Source: Clostridia bacterium
GTDB taxonomy: Bacteria > Bacillota > Clostridia > UMGS1883
Reading direction: 5' to 3'
Assembly (NCBI GenBank): GCA_017547445.1
Contig: JAFYPR010000119.1
Span: 1 to 41,948 of the forward strand
Length of the DNA: 41,948 nt
The notes under the pieces were generated by a model. That model did no database searches and was not told the origin of the DNA. It saw only the letters and a list, made by a program, of their open reading frames with translations. The translations under genes were made by a program, and so were the position numbers. The first letter of the stretch is position 1. Each line of letters starts with the position of its first letter. Shown here in pieces: positions 6,357 to 34,941 of this stretch.

Positions 6357-6453
6357 GGAGACGACACCAAAGGGGACTGTCCCAACAAAATTCCGCAGAA
6401 TTTCTTTGGCTCATCGTCTCCCGATGATGCCAAAGGGGGACTGTCCCCTTTGG
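6357..6453. repeat. structured repeat family A, copy 1 (terminator-like hairpin flanked by two GGGACTGTCCC boxes)
   Basis: GGGACTGTCCC sits at 6373-6383 and 6437-6447. The central hairpin is AAATTC-CGCA-GAATTT (6388-6403), with GGAGACGA/TCGTCTCC and CCAAAGGGG/CCCCTTTGG pairings. It recurs at 31964-32037. Confidence 0.8.
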
Positions 6454-6485
6454 TCTGTCAATTTCACACGGGAGGACCATTTACT

Positions 6486-21066: not shown

Positions 21067-21096
21067 AATCTACCTCTTTACTAAAACCCGCAATAA

Positions 21097-21150
21097 GGCT
21101 CCCTCACCGAGGGAGCTGTCACCGGAGGTGACTGAGGGAGTGTTGCAATT
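21097..21150. repeat. structured repeat family B, copy 1 (two hairpins plus a third GAGGGAG box)
   Basis: GCTCCCTC-acc-GAGGGAGC (21098-21116), GTCACC-gga-GGTGAC (21118-21132), then TGAGGGAGTGTTGCAATT. It recurs at 25993-26046. Confidence 0.8.
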
Positions 21151-25943: not shown

Positions 25944-25992
25944 TATTGACCGCCTTTCAGTTTCCCACCAATAAAAAGGAAAGATGGTTGTA

Positions 25993-26046
25993 GGCTCCCT
26001 CTTTGAGGGAGCTGTCGCCAAAGGCGACTGAGGGAGTGTTGCAATT
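25993..26046. repeat. structured repeat family B, copy 2
   Basis: GCTCCCTC-ttt-GAGGGAGC (25994-26012), GTCGCC-aaa-GGCGAC (26014-26028), then TGAGGGAGTGTTGCAATT. Confidence 0.8.
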
Positions 26047-29546: not shown

Positions 29547-30299
29547 TCAGACACCGCCAAAGCGTCTTGTGCGCTGTTGATAATCATAAATAGCCTGGAG
29601 TAAATCCTCATTTGAGAAATCGGGCCACAGTATATTGGAAAACCACAATTCACTGTACGCACCCTGCCAGAGGAAAAAGTTAGACAATCTGTACTCACCC
29701 GAAGGACGTATAATAAGGTCAGGGTCAGGCTGGGAAGCAGTATATGTTCTGGAGGAAATATCTTCTTCACAGATATCCTCAACCTCCATTTCCCCCGTCT
29801 TTACCTTTTGGGCAATTTCCTTTACCGCTTTTATAACCTCGTCGCGTCCGCCATAGTTTAAGGCAACATTAAGCAAAAGACCACTGTTATTTTCAGTGGC
29901 CTTTTCCATGTAGAGCTGTTTTGCACGGAAGGTTTCCGAAAAGGCACTTCTGTCACCGATGAAATGTATCTGAACATCTCTGCCTGCCAGTCTCTGAAGA
30001 CCGTGGTCAAGATAGTCCTCCAAAATCGCCATAAGCGCATCTACCTCTTCCTTGGGTCTTCTCCAGTTTTCCGTTGAAAATGCATACACGGTAACAACCT
30101 TAACGCCTATGTTACCTGCATACTCAACAATTCGCTCAAATGTTTTTGCCCCAACAGCGTGACCGGAGGTACGGGGCAGACCGCGGCGTTTAGCCCATCT
30201 GCCGTTTCCGTCCATAATAATTCCGATATGCTTGGGTAAGTTATCAAAGTCCACTTTTTGCTCTAAGGCCTTTTTACGGAAAAAGTCCTTTATTTTCAT
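29547..30299 (-). CDS. uppS: isoprenyl transferase (undecaprenyl diphosphate synthase)
   Basis: IIMDGNGRWA and RPSGEYRLSNFFLWQ motifs. Confidence 0.95.
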   Translation of the reverse strand: MKIKDFFRKKALEQKVDFDNLPKHIGIIMDGNGRWAKRRGLPRTSGHAVGAKTFERIVEYAGNIGVKVVTVYAFSTENWRRPKEEVDALMAILEDYLDHGLQRLAGRDVQIHFIGDRSAFSETFRAKQLYMEKATENNSGLLLNVALNYGGRDEVIKAVKEIAQKVKTGEMEVEDICEEDISSRTYTASQPDPDLIIRPSGEYRLSNFFLWQGAYSELWFSNILWPDFSNEDLLQAIYDYQQRTRRFGGV

Positions 30300-30838
30300 A
30301 TAGACATAATTTCCTTCTGCTTCTTTTCTGTGATAGCGTCGATTTCCTTGATCTTCATATCGGTAAGATCCTGGATATCCTTTTCAGCAGCCTTTAAATC
30401 GTCTTCTGTAATTTCGTTCTTCTTCTTTAATGCCTTGTATTCGTCCATAGCATCACGACGAACATTTCTTACGCTTACCTTTGCTTCTTCGCCCTTCTTG
30501 GAAACAGTCTTTGTTAATTCCTTACGTCTTTCCTCTGTAAGCTGGGGGAAACTGAGGCGGATAACCTTGCCGTCGTTCTGGGGGTTAATACCCAATTCGC
30601 TGGCTAAAATTGCCTTTTCAATAGCCTTTAAGAGGCTTGCATCCCAGGGCTGAATCATAAGTGTTCTGGGGTCAGGAGTAGAAATAGTACCAACCTGTGC
30701 AACAGGTGTCATTGTTCCGTAGTAGTCAACTGCTACCTTGTCAAGCACTGCAGCATTTGCTCTACCTACTCTGATTGTGTTTAAATCGTCCTTGTAATAA
30801 CCAATGGCTTTATCCATTCTTGCTGTAATCTCTTTCAT
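30296..30838 (-). CDS. frr: ribosome recycling factor
   Basis: 180 aa with ...LNTIRVGRANAAVLD... It occupies the conserved position after pyrH. Confidence 0.95.
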   Translation of the reverse strand: MKEITARMDKAIGYYKDDLNTIRVGRANAAVLDKVAVDYYGTMTPVAQVGTISTPDPRTLMIQPWDASLLKAIEKAILASELGINPQNDGKVIRLSFPQLTEERRKELTKTVSKKGEEAKVSVRNVRRDAMDEYKALKKKNEITEDDLKAAEKDIQDLTDMKIKEIDAITEKKQKEIMSI

Positions 30839-30870
30839 GATTATATTCCTTTCTTTTCTCTTATCAATTT

Positions 30871-31094
30871 ACTTTGATTAGGTAACTGCAACATTTTTAT
30901 AAGGTACGGGGACAGGGTAGCGAAGCGGCGACGAGGTAGTGAATGACAATCCGGTGGATTGTCAGAGCCGAGTCGAGACCGAACCGCGGTGAGATATGCT
31001 TTTTGAAGTCGGGCGACGACTTCAAAAAGAACATCTGCGGATGTTTTTTCACCCGCTGTCCCGCGTTGTGGGTTGCAGTAAAAGTTGTGGTTAC
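30871..31094 (+). repeat. structured repeat family C, copy 1 (fills the pyrH-frr spacer)
   Basis: Alignable end to end with 33639-33854. The 107-nt core 30907-31013 differs from 33675-33781 at 2 positions. Confidence 0.85.
30907..31049 (+). ncRNA. candidate ~140-nt structured small RNA (family C, copy 1)
   Basis: TTGATT (30874-79), 18 nt, TATAAG (30898-903) lies upstream. Hairpins are at 30945-30963, 30999-31029 and 31031-31044, followed by T6. The last stem is fully compensated in copy 2. Confidence 0.4.
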
Positions 31095-31097
31095 TTT

Positions 31098-31805
31098 TTA
31101 CTCAGTAACCAATGTACCAATCGCTTCGCCCATAACTGCACGGTAAATGTTTTCGGGGTCGTCTAAGCCAAACACCTGAATAGGCATCTTGTTGTCACGG
31201 CAAAGAGCAGTAGCCGTAGAGTCCATAACCTTTAAGTCTCTTGCCAGCACCTCTGAGAATGTAAGAGTATCAAACTTCTTTGCATCAGGGTTAACATGGG
31301 GGTCAGAATCATAAACACCGTCAACCTTCTTTGCAAGTAAGATTACATCCGCATTAATCTCAGCAGCTCTTAATGCCGCCGCAGTATCAGTTGAGAAGAA
31401 GGGGTTACCTGTACCGCAACCGAAAATCACCACTCTGCCACGGTTCAAGTGACTGTTTGCCTTACCGCGGATATAAGGCTCTGCAATAGCTCTCATTTCA
31501 ATGGCTGTCTGCACTCTTGTTGCAACATCAATAGCCTCCAAAGCAGAGCAAAGAGCAAGAGAATTAATAACAGTTGCAAGCATACCCATGTGGTCAGCAC
31601 GGCTTCTGTCCATATTTTCACCGCTTCTGCCTCTCCAGAAGTTACCGCCGCCTACAACAACGGCAATTTCCACGCCTGTTTCGGCGCACCTTTTAATTTG
31701 TTCACAAATTGCATCAATAGTAGGCTGGTCAAGACCGAAGCCCTTGTCGCCTGCCAATGCTTCACCGGATACCTTCAAAAGAACTCTTTTGTACTTAGGT
31801 TGCAT
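31098..31805 (-). CDS. pyrH: UMP kinase
   Basis: [13 protein letters not shown]-terminus, 235 aa. Confidence 0.95.
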
Positions 31806-31898: not shown

Positions 31899-32084
31899 AA
31901 AAAAAAGAGAGGAAAGTCAAATTCAATGTCATTAAGTTAGCATTTCGCATTTTCAGCCATTTCGGGACTGTCCCAACAAAACCTCGCAAGGCTTCTTTGG
32001 TTTGTCGTCTCCCGACGAACCAAAGGGGGACTGTCCCAAATGGCTTTTTCTTAACTTAATGACATTGAAATCAAATTCCTCTCT
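31899..32084 (-). terminator. very long compound hairpin plus T8 downstream of hydG, with repeat family A copy 2 at its apex
   Basis: Perfect 18-bp inverted repeat TTCAATGTCATTAAGTTA (31922-31939 / 32052-32069). The outer pairing is AGAGAGGAA/TTCCTCTCT (31906-31914 / 32076-32084). An A8 run (31899-31906) gives T8 after the 3' arm on the - strand. Confidence 0.6.
31964..32037. repeat. structured repeat family A, copy 2
   Basis: GGGACTGTCCC at 31964-31974 and 32027-32037. The central hairpin is AACCT-CGCA-AGG(C)TT (31980-31994), with the shared TCGTCTCCCGA segment. Confidence 0.8.
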
Positions 32085-32090
32085 CTTTTG

Positions 32091-33515
32091 TTAAAATCTG
32101 AAGTCTCTCGTTCCCTTTTCGATATCGGAAAGATTCTGCTTTGCTCTTTCCTTTACCTTTTCGTTAGTGATGCGTTCAATCTCACGGGAGATTATTTCTT
32201 CGCCCTTTTTCTTAGTATCCTCGCTTGCATAATCCATCAGGTATTCCTTGAGTGTCATCAGCGCATTGGGGTGACAGCAGTTGATAATCTGCCCCGATTT
32301 TAAAAGGCTCATAAATCTGTCGCCCGTTCTGCCCTCACGGTAGCAGGCTGTACAGAAACTGGGCACATGACCCATATCAATCAGCCAGTTAACCACCTCA
32401 TCAAGACTTCTTCTGTCGGAGAGGTCAAACTGACTTGTGCTCTCGTCGATATATTCAGGCTCGGTATATCCGCCAACGGAGGTACGGCTTCCGCCCGATA
32501 TCTGGCTTATACCCAATTGAAGAACCCTCTCTCTTACCTCCTTGCTTTCACGGGTAGAAATAATCATTCCTGTATAAGGCACCGCAATACGGATAATTGC
32601 AACAATCTTTTCAAAAATTTCGTTACTGATTGCATTTGTAAAATCGTTAACGTCAATATCGTCTGCAGGGCATATTCTGGGCACGCTTATTGTATGCGGT
32701 CCAACACCCTTTGCCGCCTCCAAGTGCTCTGCGTGCATGAGCAATCCCACTAAATCATAGCGGTACAGATTAAGACCGAATAATACACCCAGGCCCACAT
32801 CGTCAATGCCACCGTCCATGGCTCTGTCCATAGCCTCGGTGTGGTACGCATAATTACTCTTTGGCCCTGTGGGATGAAGCGCTTCATAATTCTCTTTATT
32901 ATATGTTTCCTGGAAAAGAATATACGTACCTATACCCGCATCCTTCAGCTTTTTGTAGTTTTCAACACTTGTTGCCGCAATATTTACATTAACACGGCGG
33001 ATAGCACCGTTTTTATGCTTTATGGAGTAAATGGTCTTAATGCTCTCCAGGATATATTCCAAAGGATTATTTACGGGGTCTTCACCTGCCTCTAAAGCAA
33101 GGCGCTTATGACCCATGTCCTGAAGTGCCATAACCTCAGCACGTATCTCCTCCTGAGTAAGCTTCTTACGGGGAATAGTCTTATTCTGTCTGTGATAAGG
33201 GCAGTATACACAACCGTTAACGCAGTAGTTTGAAAGATACAAGGGTGCGAACATAACTATACGGTTACCGTAGAATTTATCCTTTATTTCCTTTGCTAAT
33301 GAATAAATTCTTTCGTTTGCCTCCCGGATTTCACATTCCAGTAAAACTGCCGCTTCACGGTGGGTAATACCCTTCATTTCCTCAGCTTTCTTTATAATAG
33401 AGTCAATAAGCTCCTTATTATCCTTATTTTTCTGTGCATATTCCAGTGTTTCGAGGATTTCTTCATGATTGATAAATTCCTCTGCTTTTGAGCTTTTTAC
33501 GTCGTATTTTGCCAT
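32091..33515 (-). CDS. hydG: [FeFe]-hydrogenase maturase HydG (radical SAM tyrosine lyase)
   Basis: Radical SAM CVNGCVYC (Cx3Cx2C), C-terminal auxiliary cluster motif CTAC-x21-CC, ~474 aa. Start at ATG 33515, with AGAGGTG upstream. Confidence 0.88.
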   Translation of the reverse strand: MAKYDVKSSKAEEFINHEEILETLEYAQKNKDNKELIDSIIKKAEEMKGITHREAAVLLECEIREANERIYSLAKEIKDKFYGNRIVMFAPLYLSNYCVNGCVYCPYHRQNKTIPRKKLTQEEIRAEVMALQDMGHKRLALEAGEDPVNNPLEYILESIKTIYSIKHKNGAIRRVNVNIAATSVENYKKLKDAGIGTYILFQETYNKENYEALHPTGPKSNYAYHTEAMDRAMDGGIDDVGLGVLFGLNLYRYDLVGLLMHAEHLEAAKGVGPHTISVPRICPADDIDVNDFTNAISNEIFEKIVAIIRIAVPYTGMIISTRESKEVRERVLQLGISQISGGSRTSVGGYTEPEYIDESTSQFDLSDRRSLDEVVNWLIDMGHVPSFCTACYREGRTGDRFMSLLKSGQIINCCHPNALMTLKEYLMDYASEDTKKKGEEIISREIERITNEKVKERAKQNLSDIEKGTRDFRF

Positions 33516-33535
33516 TCCAATCACCTCTTCCTTAC

Positions 33536-33564: not shown

Positions 33565-33638
33565 ACCCATTATTTACATAAAAGATATTACAAATTTATG
33601 ACGAAATAAAAAAGCGAGGGCGAAAACACTTCCGCTCC

Positions 33639-33854
33639 ACTTTGATTAGGTAATTGCAACATTTTTATAATGTGCGGGGACAGGGTAGCGAAGCGGCGAC
33701 GAGGTAGTGAATGACAATCCGGTGGATTGTCAGAGCCGAGTCGTGACCGAACCGCAGTGAGATATGCTTTTTGAAGTCGGGATACAACTTCAAAAAGGAC
33801 CTTTGCGAAGGTCTTTTCACCCACTGTCCCACGTTGTGGGCTTTAGTGAAGTTT
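33639..33854 (+). repeat. structured repeat family C, copy 2
   Basis: See copy 1. The right end is more degenerate than in copy 1. Confidence 0.85.
33675..33817 (+). ncRNA. candidate ~140-nt structured small RNA or leader (family C, copy 2)
   Basis: TTGATT (33642-47), 18 nt, TATAAT (33666-71). Hairpins are at 33713-33731 and 33767-33797, plus GACCTT-TGCG-AAGGTC (33798-33813) followed by TTTT. Confidence 0.4.
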
Positions 33855-33882
33855 TCGCTAAATTTAAAAAAGGAGACTTATT

Positions 33883-34941
33883 ATGAAAATCAAGAATCTA
33901 ATGGCAATTTCACTTGCCGCATTAACTTTATCCACGCCTGTGCAGGCGGCAAATCACACCGTAGTAAAGGGAGATACCTACTGGACAATTTCCAGACAAT
34001 ATGGTGTAGACTTCAAAACCCTGTTACAGGCAAACGGCGCAAATGAATCCTCATGGCTTGAGATTGGCGATATAGTCTATGTGCCCACCGAAAAGGTGCA
34101 TGTTGTATCAAAGGGCGATACCTACTGGCTTATTGCAAAGTGGTACGGGGTTGACTTTAAAACACTTCTAAAAGCCAACAATGCCACAGAAAGCTCATGG
34201 CTCGAAATCGGTGACAGGGTTATTATCCCCCAAGGCAGCTCCTCGTCAGGCTCAACAGGTTCATCAGGCTCAGCTTCCACAAAACCGTATGTGACTTATA
34301 CTACATATACAGTTAAATCAGGCGACACCTACTGGAACATTGCCAACAACTTCGGCATACCCATGGAGGAGCTTTTAAACACCAACGGGCTTACCGAAAA
34401 TTCCTCTATCTATGCAGGCAAAACCCTTAAAATTCCTGTTCATCACGTGCCCGTTACCTCTACCCCCGGCAGTCAGTATGGCGAATATCTCGACTGGTGG
34501 GAAGCTGCACAGTATGTCATCCCCGTAGGTGCAACATTCACCGTGCAGGACTTTTACACAGGTCAATCCTTTAAGGCAAAGCGTACCACAGGCTCGGGTC
34601 ATGCAGACTGCGAACCCTTAACCGCATCAGATACCTCTAAAATGAATACAATATTCGGCGGACAGAACTGGACAAGCCGTCCCGTTATAATTATCTACAA
34701 TGGCAGAAAAATTGCCGCCTCCGCCACAAGTAAGCTCCACGCAGGCAACGACGGAGCCGCAGGCGGTGTATGGACTTCTTGGCGAAGCGATGATTACGGC
34801 GCAGGCTATAACTTTGACTGGGTTAAGGGTAATAATGCTCACGGCGTATTCGACATTCACTTCTTAAACTCCATCCGCCACAATGACGGCAAGGTACACC
34901 AGACTCACCAAAAGAATGTCCGCACTTCCGCAGGCAAATAA
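33883..34941 (+). CDS. secreted protein with three LysM repeats and a C-terminal domain of unknown family
   Basis: Signal peptide MKIKNLMAISLAALTLSTPVQA and three ~44-aa LysM units (..KGDTYWTISRQYGVDFKTLLQANG..). I do not recognise the ~170-aa C-terminal domain. Confidence 0.85.
   Translation: MKIKNLMAISLAALTLSTPVQAANHTVVKGDTYWTISRQYGVDFKTLLQANGANESSWLEIGDIVYVPTEKVHVVSKGDTYWLIAKWYGVDFKTLLKANNATESSWLEIGDRVIIPQGSSSSGSTGSSGSASTKPYVTYTTYTVKSGDTYWNIANNFGIPMEELLNTNGLTENSSIYAGKTLKIPVHHVPVTSTPGSQYGEYLDWWEAAQYVIPVGATFTVQDFYTGQSFKAKRTTGSGHADCEPLTASDTSKMNTIFGGQNWTSRPVIIIYNGRKIAASATSKLHAGNDGAAGGVWTSWRSDDYGAGYNFDWVKGNNAHGVFDIHFLNSIRHNDGKVHQTHQKNVRTSAGK

Follow-up and report, generated by a model that had tools for sequence, protein, structure and literature searches.

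The 41,948-nt contig JAFYPR010000119.1 of a Clostridia bacterium (GenBank assembly GCA_017547445.1), here called the window, carries a hairpin-rich repeat in the spacer between pyrH and frr and a second copy of it between a LysM gene and a radical-SAM gene. Comparison with relatives marks both copies as recent insertions, and pattern scans join them to a family of about 50 loci in Clostridia metagenome-assembled genomes (MAGs), gut and rumen metagenomes, and tailed phages. What the members share is a core of about 78 nt, with covarying helices and invariant loops, lying at the center of a palindrome that differs from locus to locus. The reading that we prefer, and to which we give an even chance, is a non-autonomous mobile structured element whose junction would be recognized by trans-acting machinery. 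The core module on the + strand consists of a GCGAAGC mini-hairpin, a helix P2, a purine-rich internal loop, a 9-bp hairpin P3 and a CGCA-capped hairpin P4, and the outer stem is built from whatever sequence flanks the module. The strand-specific fold would be a single-stranded form, RNA or possibly single-stranded DNA (ssDNA), recognized in trans by an enzyme that would copy or move the element, and the promoter-like hexamers, hairpins and T-runs at the pyrH-frr junction would be side effects of the insertion.

Insertion sites and spread of the repeat

Repeat search finds the 227-nt unit at 30871-31097 and 33639-33865 with 88% identity and no gaps, and search and alignment together bear out the 224-bp repeat with a second copy that a first-pass annotation of the window had reported. 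As that annotation had also said, only 2 differences fall within the 107-nt core 30907-31013 when the two copies are aligned by MAFFT; the others are concentrated in the -10 region, the loop of hairpin H2, the stem of hairpin H3 and the last ~25 nt. A core 20-mer occurs exactly twice in the window, against 0.01 occurrences expected by chance.

In the protein collection, the Frr of the window has its nearest matches at 93%, 91% and 83% identity, and the contigs that encode these retain the gene order LysM<->radical SAM-pyrH-frr-uppS-cdsA-dxr. In these relatives the pyrH-frr spacer is 25-31 nt long, versus the 259 bp described for the window, and the divergent LysM/radical-SAM spacer is ~142 nt with the element missing. 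Alignment makes the entire repeat unit extra DNA at both sites, and a filled/empty-site test finds both window sites empty in L035-L045 (L numbers are our handles for loci). Judged by this comparison, both window copies are recent insertions. A Logan contig with an identical frr gene terminates at window position 30897, inside copy 1, which we attribute to assembler behavior at a repeat.

Because the relatives' sites lack the element, an evolved role in pyrH-frr regulation is excluded, and the built-in attenuation of pyrH-to-frr read-through proposed in the first-pass annotation falls with the 25-nt spacer that relatives have in its place. The 229 nt of stable structure inserted at the junction may have a polar effect on frr, and any such polarity would result from the insertion itself; it would not make the element a designed attenuator. 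Directly upstream of frr, just outside the element, the - strand also has a TTGATA-16-TATAAT match (30840-30867, 11/12) that is missing from the relatives' spacer; it is probably not a working promoter, as its -10 hexamer overlaps the ribosome-binding site and start codon.

Homologues of the element were collected by three exact-pattern scans. The pattern GTAGCGAAGCGGCGACGAGG gives 10 true loci in 5 Clostridia MAG species, including Candidatus Apopatosoma intestinale; the water-deer MAG RGIG9002 has six or more of these matches and at least 8 copies or fragments altogether. The pattern GTGAATGACA-N7-37-TGTCAGAGCCGAG gives 22 loci in human-gut, goat and rumen metagenomes. For IMG/VR, two stricter exact patterns gave no match and the slightly looser AGTGAATGACA-N7-37-TGTCAGAGCC gave 18 loci, among them genuine tailed-phage modules, with some copies between terminase, portal, scaffold and major-head genes; L056 has three copies, in both orientations, around its capsid, portal and terminase genes. 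After duplicate removal there are at least 44 distinct versions. Rfam 15 cmscan has no match in the whole window at gathering thresholds and none even at E<=10 for 30800-31150, in agreement with the first-pass annotation, which had recognized no known RNA family. There is likewise no blastn match of the element to PLSDB plasmids or INPHARED phages, and a full-text literature search with the core sequence returns chance primer matches only.

Between genomes only the central ~60-80 nt are shared, at 80-95% identity, and the flanks are unrelated. The repeat unit measures 227 nt in the window; in RGIG9002 it reaches ~500 nt and ends in A/T-rich palindromes, and at tRNA genes it is ~150 nt, in tandem (period 146-154 nt in L024 and L052); about one third of the matches lie at contig ends. 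The core is consistently at the center of a longer palindrome that is specific to its locus. In the window this is GGGGACAG/CUGUCCC plus ACUGCAAC/GUUGCAGU, and in other genomes it is either a GGCUCCCUC/GAGGGAG 'chassis' or the 3' end of the neighboring tRNA, copied in inverted and in direct orientation.

Fold of the core and the signals around it

The minimum free energy (MFE) fold of 30905-31075 is -75.2 kcal/mol on the + strand (z = -6.2), which upholds the earlier description of a strongly structured element, and -71.2 kcal/mol on the - strand (z = -7.9). Of the two strands, the + strand is the stabler in 27 of 29 distinct elements, with a mean advantage of 5.4 kcal/mol (Wilcoxon p = 8e-6, over sequences that are not independent), and tandem G.A pairs and a conserved G-U ending P2 (14 G-U, 3 A-U) are found exclusively on it. 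The greater stability, and the restriction of those pairs to one strand, identify the + strand as the folding strand, which is how the first-pass annotation had read it.

Covariation was computed on an 18-sequence alignment, in which 92.4% of cells are paired and 9 pairs are changed on both sides. The score is 0.263, versus 0.091 +/- 0.013 for shuffled alignments (0 of 500 reach it) and at most 0.043 for all slid controls. The covarying helices are P2, P3 and P4, and the asymmetric internal loop is invariant; covariation among homologues had been named beforehand as a check on the structure, and here it is present. Two short pairings that had been drawn around P3 fare differently, since CGAC/GTCG falls in a covarying helix and GCGG/CCGC has no covariation and 4 unpaired cells, the homologues supporting a hairpin CGARC-CGCA-GYGAG in its place.

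P2 has 8-9 bp, with double changes in 5 of 9 pairs, and appears as CGAGG/CCGAG (tandem G.A), CUCGG/CCGAG, CGCGG/CCGCG, UUUGG/CCAAA or AUCGCGG/CCGCGAU. P3, also 8-9 bp, covaries at 3 positions and counts 153 Watson-Crick pairs, 1 G-U and 1 A-C over 18 stem variants; L006 has a 57-nt insertion in its loop. Most copies have UGACCGA at the junction between P3 and P4. One P4 pair covaries between A-U and G-C (5:13), L006 gains a C-G pair there, and the P4 stems of class 2b are quite different beneath the same CGCA loop. The mini-hairpin GCGAAGC is a feature of the window's subclass, substituted by GC-AUA-GC in L017 and by GGC-GUA-GCC in L059.

All the helices that the first-pass annotation had listed, H1 (our P3), H2, H3 and the outer GGGACAG/CTGTCCC, are found both as inverted repeats and in the MFE fold. 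The outer pairing is part of the design, since an outer stem occurs in the homologues too, with locus-specific sequences; a longest-perfect-helix test of it is clear for the tRNA-linked class only, the overall mean being 7.7 nt versus 6.1 nt shuffled. After the 3' arm of the outer stem, GUUGCA occurs in the window, in the phage copies whose post-P4 hairpin matches H2, and in a core-less window repeat described below. The motif GTTGCART is enriched in the window (9 versus 1.75 expected), about half of its matches being in coding sequence. Between the two window copies H3 (31031-31044 versus 33799-33814) has 3 base-pair differences, all compensated as had been claimed, though the 107-nt core differs at 2 positions; judging from the two sequences, either a hairpin module has been swapped or the palindrome is maintained by a templated process. 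By the fold model the conserved part of the element would be a strand-specific three-way or four-way junction.

Such a structure could also be a functional RNA module of host and phage: a ribonucleoprotein (RNP) scaffold, a signal for processing or termination, or a ribozyme yet to be discovered, acting in any carrier transcript and spread by duplication and horizontal transfer, with mobility secondary. Conserved loop and junction nucleotides between covarying stems are the usual signature of functional RNA. The internal loop, with a Watson-Crick stem, a 3-nt bulge, and G.A and A.G pairs, looks like a K-turn, and together with the tandem G.A pairs of P4 it would be a typical RNA motif. Copies lie in sense in phage late operons, such as L058 between portal and scaffold genes, all 11 tRNA-linked copies are co-oriented with their tRNA, and the L025/L020/L046 locus (below) has kept its element with compensated changes. 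We nevertheless consider this reading unlikely. Of the 19 non-tRNA copies whose two neighbors were both called, 7 run antisense to the pair (6 run in sense with it, 4 lie between convergent and 2 between divergent genes), and with no family promoter many copies would never be transcribed into + strand RNA. The ratio of 153 Watson-Crick pairs to a single G-U in P3, and the tRNA-derived arms that look templated at the DNA level, also speak against it, as does the recent arrival of the window copies in sites that work without the element in relatives. With heterogeneous neighboring genes and random orientation, the element does not behave as a riboswitch or cis-regulatory leader either.

The first-pass annotation had taken each copy for a promoter-to-terminator cassette, that is, a stand-alone small RNA (sRNA) gene of ~140 nt that brings a sigma-70 promoter and an intrinsic terminator of its own, with copy 1, convergent with pyrH, also attenuating pyrH-to-frr read-through. 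Copy 2 does have TTGATT-18-TATAAT (33642-33671), which passes the promoter scan with a 10/12 match; the strand is the folding one, H3 is retained by compensated changes and followed by a T-run, and the - strand has a terminator-like site at 31056-31037. In copy 1 the hexamers are present as described, but the -10, TATAAG, is defective and fails the scan. Neither H3 is scored as a + strand terminator, the copy 1 stem having 2 G-C pairs and copy 2 having 4 T, and the conserved outer stem closes 3' of H3 and its T-run, past the proposed terminator; some homologues (L008, L034) have a U-run directly after the outer stem. A sigma-70-like promoter lies within 130 nt upstream in 2 of 42 distinct elements, one of them window copy 2, versus 6% of random windows at the same loci, so that it is no family trait and equals background. 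Added to this, both sites are empty in relatives, hence no established frr regulator is at work, and the sRNA-gene reading becomes improbable. What the first-pass annotation had named as the outcome that would undo it, one of many copies of a miniature inverted-repeat transposable element (MITE) or of an insertion-sequence end, is essentially what we find: the element is multicopy, insertion-polymorphic, present in phages and many genomes, and orientation-independent. A small-ORF reading was also dropped, as the sole ORF spanning copy 1 (67 aa) is interrupted by a stop in copy 2.

Table 1. Features of the repeat unit in the window (P, helix of the core model; H, hairpin numbering of the first-pass annotation)
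Feature	Position	Strand	Remark
Copy 1 of repeat unit	30869-31097	+	within pyrH-frr spacer; orthologous site empty in L035, L039, L043
Copy 2 of repeat unit	33637-33865	+	within divergent LysM/radical-SAM spacer; relatives L039, L040 without copy
Direct repeat TTACTTT, left	30869-30875		7 nt, brackets copy 1; possible target-site duplication
Direct repeat TTACTTT, right	31091-31097		abuts pyrH stop codon 31098-31100
Promoter-like TTGATT-18-TATAAG	30874-30903	+	second hexamer lacks invariant T at position 6; fails scan
Subterminal inverted repeat ACTGCAAC	30885-30892	+	pairs with GTTGCAGT 31072-31079; 8 bp; missing in copy 2
Outer stem P1, 5' arm GGGACAG	30909-30915	+	inverted repeat and MFE fold
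Conserved core module (GUAGCGAAGCGG...GUGAGA)	30917-30994	+	~78 nt; common to at least 44 distinct homologues
Mini-hairpin GCGAAGC	30920-30926	+	invariant in 18/18 aligned sequences
P2, 5' strand (G-CGACGAGG)	30928-30936	+	pairs with 30968-30976; closed by conserved G-U
Internal loop, 5' side nAGUGAA	30937-30943	+	invariant across homologues
P3 hairpin = H1 (TGACAATCC/GGATTGTCA)	30944-30964	+	inverted repeat and MFE fold
Internal loop, 3' side GAG, then P2 3' strand CCGAGUCGA	30965-30976	+	
P4 hairpin CGAAC-CGCG-GUGAG	30980-30993	+	tandem G.A pairs at base; CGCA loop in most homologues
H2, 13-bp A/U-rich hairpin	30999-31029	+	matches post-P4 hairpin of phage copies L053, L055, L057, L065
H3 hairpin and T6	31031-31050	+	three compensated pair changes versus copy 2
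Terminator-like hairpin and T-rich tail	31037-31056	-	pyrH-to-frr direction; pattern match only
Outer stem P1, 3' arm CTGTCCC	31056-31062	+	inverted repeat and MFE fold

The genes around copy 1 are frr (30296-30838, PF01765) and pyrH (31098-31805, PF00696), both on the - strand. The statement that all neighboring genes are on that strand holds for copy 1 only, as copy 2 lies between divergent genes, the radical-SAM/BATS gene (32091-33524, - strand) and the LysM gene (33883-34941, + strand), in the same sense as the latter. The remaining window is housekeeping chromosome, with dnaE, pnp, murA, prfA, a gyrA-like gene, xseA and guaA among its genes, and ARAGORN finds no tRNA gene in it.

Copies beside tRNA genes

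At 11 loci ARAGORN places a tRNA gene upstream of the element on the same strand (Ala, Arg x2, Gly, Glu, Pro x2, Ser x3, Leu). In 10 of them the distance from the tRNA 3' end to the start of the core is 66-80 nt, and in L003 it is 339 nt. In the outer stem, the 5' arm repeats 10-14 nt of the T-loop and 3' T-stem of that tRNA perfectly, in inverted orientation; in L021, L022 and L003 this arm runs on, past an unpaired 7-nt ATTGAA(A) insert, to complement the acceptor strand as well. The 3' end of the same tRNA recurs in direct orientation as the 3' arm (19/19 nt in L024, 18/20 in L016), with a copy of that tRNA's terminator behind it. At its distal border this subclass has the tRNA 3' end as a direct repeat, for example in L024, L016 and L025, which the window copies do not. 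Two loci (L024, L052) have the array form tRNA(A)-terminator-A'-core-A-terminator-A'-core-A. The tRNA-derived arms are 100% complementary with zero G-U pairs, and for that reason look templated at the DNA level and not the product of slow compensation. The units are ~150 nt and contain neither an ORF nor an integrase gene.

This subclass would be best explained by miniature integrative units that recombine site-specifically at tRNA 3' ends through a host or prophage recombinase. The inverted copy, core and direct copy would form a folded single-stranded att site, and the window copies would have escaped to other palindromes. The perfect inverted 5' copies and long direct 3' copies fit such units, as do the arms that reach across the unpaired insert to the acceptor strand, and the ~150-nt-period tandem arrays are like those of dif-integrating elements. 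We consider it very improbable all the same, with no recombinase gene among the families listed for neighbor ORFs, a stem of 12-14 bp that is short for a recombinase dimer, no account of how the inverted arm comes to match seven different tRNAs, no tRNA-derived arms in the window and phage copies, and no replication-strand bias.

Several tRNA-linked loci show further units. In L013 the tRNA-linked copy is followed, 180 nt downstream, by a diverged second copy (150-336) with an extra hairpin module upstream of its core. A whole tRNA 3' end with its ACCA (GGTTCAAGTCCTTCTCCCGCAACCA) makes up the 3' arm of this second copy, and the ~20-nt complement of that end makes up the 5' arm. What appears in L013 to be an acceptor stem with CCA is a longer outer stem from a displaced tRNA 3' end. 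Rfam cmscan of L013 1-450 returns one match, a chance snoRNA at E=2. In L003 a further unit (764-1040) separates tRNA-Leu from the unit that carries the core. It starts in the same way, with an inverted T-arm and then CAGAGTGGG, and closes with the tRNA 3' end repeated in direct orientation, and its interior is different, with the UAGCGAAG motif only; by these sequences, different cores may share the tRNA-linked frame. L015 and L026 are 99.6% identical for 5.4 kb and diverge exactly at the tRNA-Ala 3' end, past which one has the tRNA and the other a protein-coding gene; the pattern could be a tRNA-integrated island or an assembly chimera at a repeat. Two RNA candidates were rejected. ARAGORN finds no tRNA-like or tmRNA-like RNA in the element, and for an HDV-like 'theta' ribozyme downstream of the tRNA the P1 partner for the J2/4 strand is missing upstream.

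In the locus shared by L025, L020 and L046, the ~120-nt leader of a 456/477-aa gene with a weak Mor-like HTH match (L025 4990-5054, L020 6975-7038, L046 150-271) is nearly identical in the three genomes despite completely different upstream tRNA terminators. It may itself be a cis-regulatory leader. ORFs of 477 aa had been a candidate partner, as they lie beside several copies, and were set aside as unrelated, being radical SAM in the window and Mor-like in L014, L020 and L025.

The mobile-element reading and known systems

Several observations weigh against the mobile-element reading. No mobilizing enzyme is found in the scanned neighbor ORFs: Pfam on 96 chromosomal and PHROGs on 62 phage neighbor ORFs give no enriched family among those listed, and transposase, integrase, reverse transcriptase (RT) and HNH are absent from the 25 best families per scan of these 158 ORFs and from the families listed by Pfam for ORFs directly adjoining copies. 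A related autonomous element with a transposase does not appear among the families listed for the 158 neighbor ORFs (the 25 best per scan) or among the 25 best NCBIfam families, each listed by its first member, for 28 window ORFs. The GC-skew orientation of elements is 22:25, a rough proxy on short contigs, and this lack of bias disfavors a lagging-strand ssDNA mechanism of IS200/IS605 type. Conservation at the center and variation at the ends reverse what is usual in transposons; the terminal inverted repeats are only weak, none being common to all copies as the ends vary among genomes, and copy 2 has no convincing target-site duplication, matching TTACTTT at the equivalent positions in 4/7 only. 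In two MAG species (L003 1401-2411, L007 2380-3519) the element is upstream of and in sense to holA (DNA polymerase III delta), either an old shared insertion or a preferred site. At the L025/L020/L046 locus, where the adjacent proteins are 88-91% identical, all three genomes have the element with P3 and P4 changed with compensation, loops unchanged and outer arms decayed; to judge by the sequences, this vertical persistence looks like purifying selection and could mean a host or phage function.

The nearest known kind is that of the MITEs, REP/BIME, ERIC, Correia and RUP/BOX repeats, which are like the element in being non-coding, 150-500 bp, multicopy, intergenic in either orientation, insertion-polymorphic between close relatives, and hairpin-rich with promoter- or terminator-like signals that they may bring. 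The properties non-coding, short, multicopy and filled/empty sites are all found here. The element differs in its ~80-nt central module with covarying helices and invariant loops, in ends that vary by genome and lack clean terminal inverted repeats or target-site duplications, in its presence inside tailed phages, and in its tRNA-copied arms. REP/REPIN elements and elements derived from IS200/IS605 (PATE) were rejected, with no Y1 HUH/RAYT among the neighbor families listed, hairpins that are central, and the 22:25 skew. An inverton was rejected because the inverted repeats are locus-specific.

Two further small repeat families turn up in the window by repeat search. A separate element at ~31920-32070 contains GGGACTGTCCC twice. 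It terminates in inverted repeats of 18 nt that match perfectly (31922-39 / 32052-69), is flanked by direct repeats A(A/G)TCAAATTC, and lies in the loop of the radical-SAM gene terminator hairpin (stem 31901-14 / 32076-89), which is intact and uninterrupted in relatives L035 and L039. On these features it is a textbook MITE nested in a hairpin loop, so MITEs that nest in hairpins have been active in this lineage. The repeat at 6366-6454 and 31964-32037 has GGGACTGTCCC on both sides (77% identical over 66 nt), and the copy at 6366-6454 is inside a different palindrome (ACCAAAGGGG/CCCCTTTGGT), from which it follows that the GGGACTGTCCC module also nests in locus-specific hairpins. A 55-nt repeat at 21096-21150 and 25992-26046 (87% identical) has the form GGCUCCCUC-nnn-GAGGGAGC-UGUCnCC-GGA-GGnGAC-UGAGGGAG-UGUUGCAAUU, including a GUCnCC-GGA-GGnGAC hairpin, with a C-rich arm able to pair with either of two G-rich segments. 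The same frame is the 'chassis' around the core in L006, L054, L056 and L063, and the 55-nt repeats look like core-less versions of the element. The lineage thus carries several hairpin-nesting small elements, the core being regularly at the center of palindromes of different origin.

Nesting at a palindrome center recalls IS110/IS1111 and the IS1397 insertions in REP loops, and the inverted repeat of copy 1 is subterminal as well. A structured non-coding RNA of ~150-200 nt reportedly belongs to the IS110 design, as told in 2024 by Durrant et al. and by Siddiquee et al. Here no DEDD recombinase lies beside any copy, by the neighbor families listed, and two large internal loops paired as in a bridge RNA are missing; the element has a single internal loop, invariant in at least 44 versions across very different flanks, which argues that it is no programmable target or donor guide. 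The attP(+) of CTX phage and integron attC are similar in having two inverted target copies ~75-100 nt apart by structured DNA, a strand-specific fold, tandem arrays at the target and no transposase-style ends. The element, in contrast, targets a tRNA 3' end and not dif or attI, its stem is only 12-14 bp, and its spacer is a conserved three-way junction; integron attC was rejected because its R''/R' consensus (RYYYAAC/GTTRRRY) is not present.

Retron msr-msd has a ~12-bp non-conserved closing stem (like a1/a2) around hairpins, and class 1 copies of the element have a UAGCG motif right after the 5' arm. However, no RT is adjacent at ~60 loci (families listed, 25 best per scan), class 2 is without UAGCG, and no msd-like long hairpin stands beside the 3' arm. 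Hammerhead and other small self-cleaving ribozymes resemble the element in the three-way junction, in tandem G.A at a helix base flanked by (C)UGA...GA and GAGA, and in occurring in phages, in tandem and near tRNA genes. A hammerhead was rejected because the core CUGANGA / GAAA / UH is not kept. In the junction, which reads (n)UGACCGA / GAGA(A), C3 may be G, C or A, there are extra nucleotides and a G for A14, and no Rfam ribozyme model matches at E<=10.

Small structured non-coding repeats are already known as a kind, while the present family is not in Rfam and we found no published description of it; its misfits to the families tested are a center that is conserved while the ends vary, an occurrence in chromosomes as well as in tailed phages, and arms that copy tRNA. 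As a tentative possibility, the core could be an undescribed class of folded nucleic acid, either a new functional RNA, for example an RNP scaffold or a ribozyme, or the structure recognized by a new mobility mechanism. Such a mechanism would be marked by nesting in hairpin centers and, at tRNA genes, by perfect inverted-plus-direct copies of the tRNA 3' end, arrayed as tRNA-terminator-A'-core-A-terminator.

If the mobile-element reading is right, an uncatalogued family of structured elements is common to uncultured gut and rumen Clostridia and their phages, and a covariance model of it would improve MAG and phage annotation and explain recurrent contig breaks. The family would be a handle on a trans-acting enzyme or RNP, since a conserved strand-specific junction with invariant loops must have a recognizer. 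Its tRNA-linked form poses a testable question, the origin of perfect inverted and direct copies of seven tRNA 3' ends; if insertion itself makes the arms, for example through a folded-ssDNA att site or fold-back synthesis, a protein-less element would have a new means of targeting tRNA genes. For the strain of the window, it means that the pyrH-frr junction is split by a 229-nt hairpin-rich insertion that is maybe polar on frr and is no evolved regulator.

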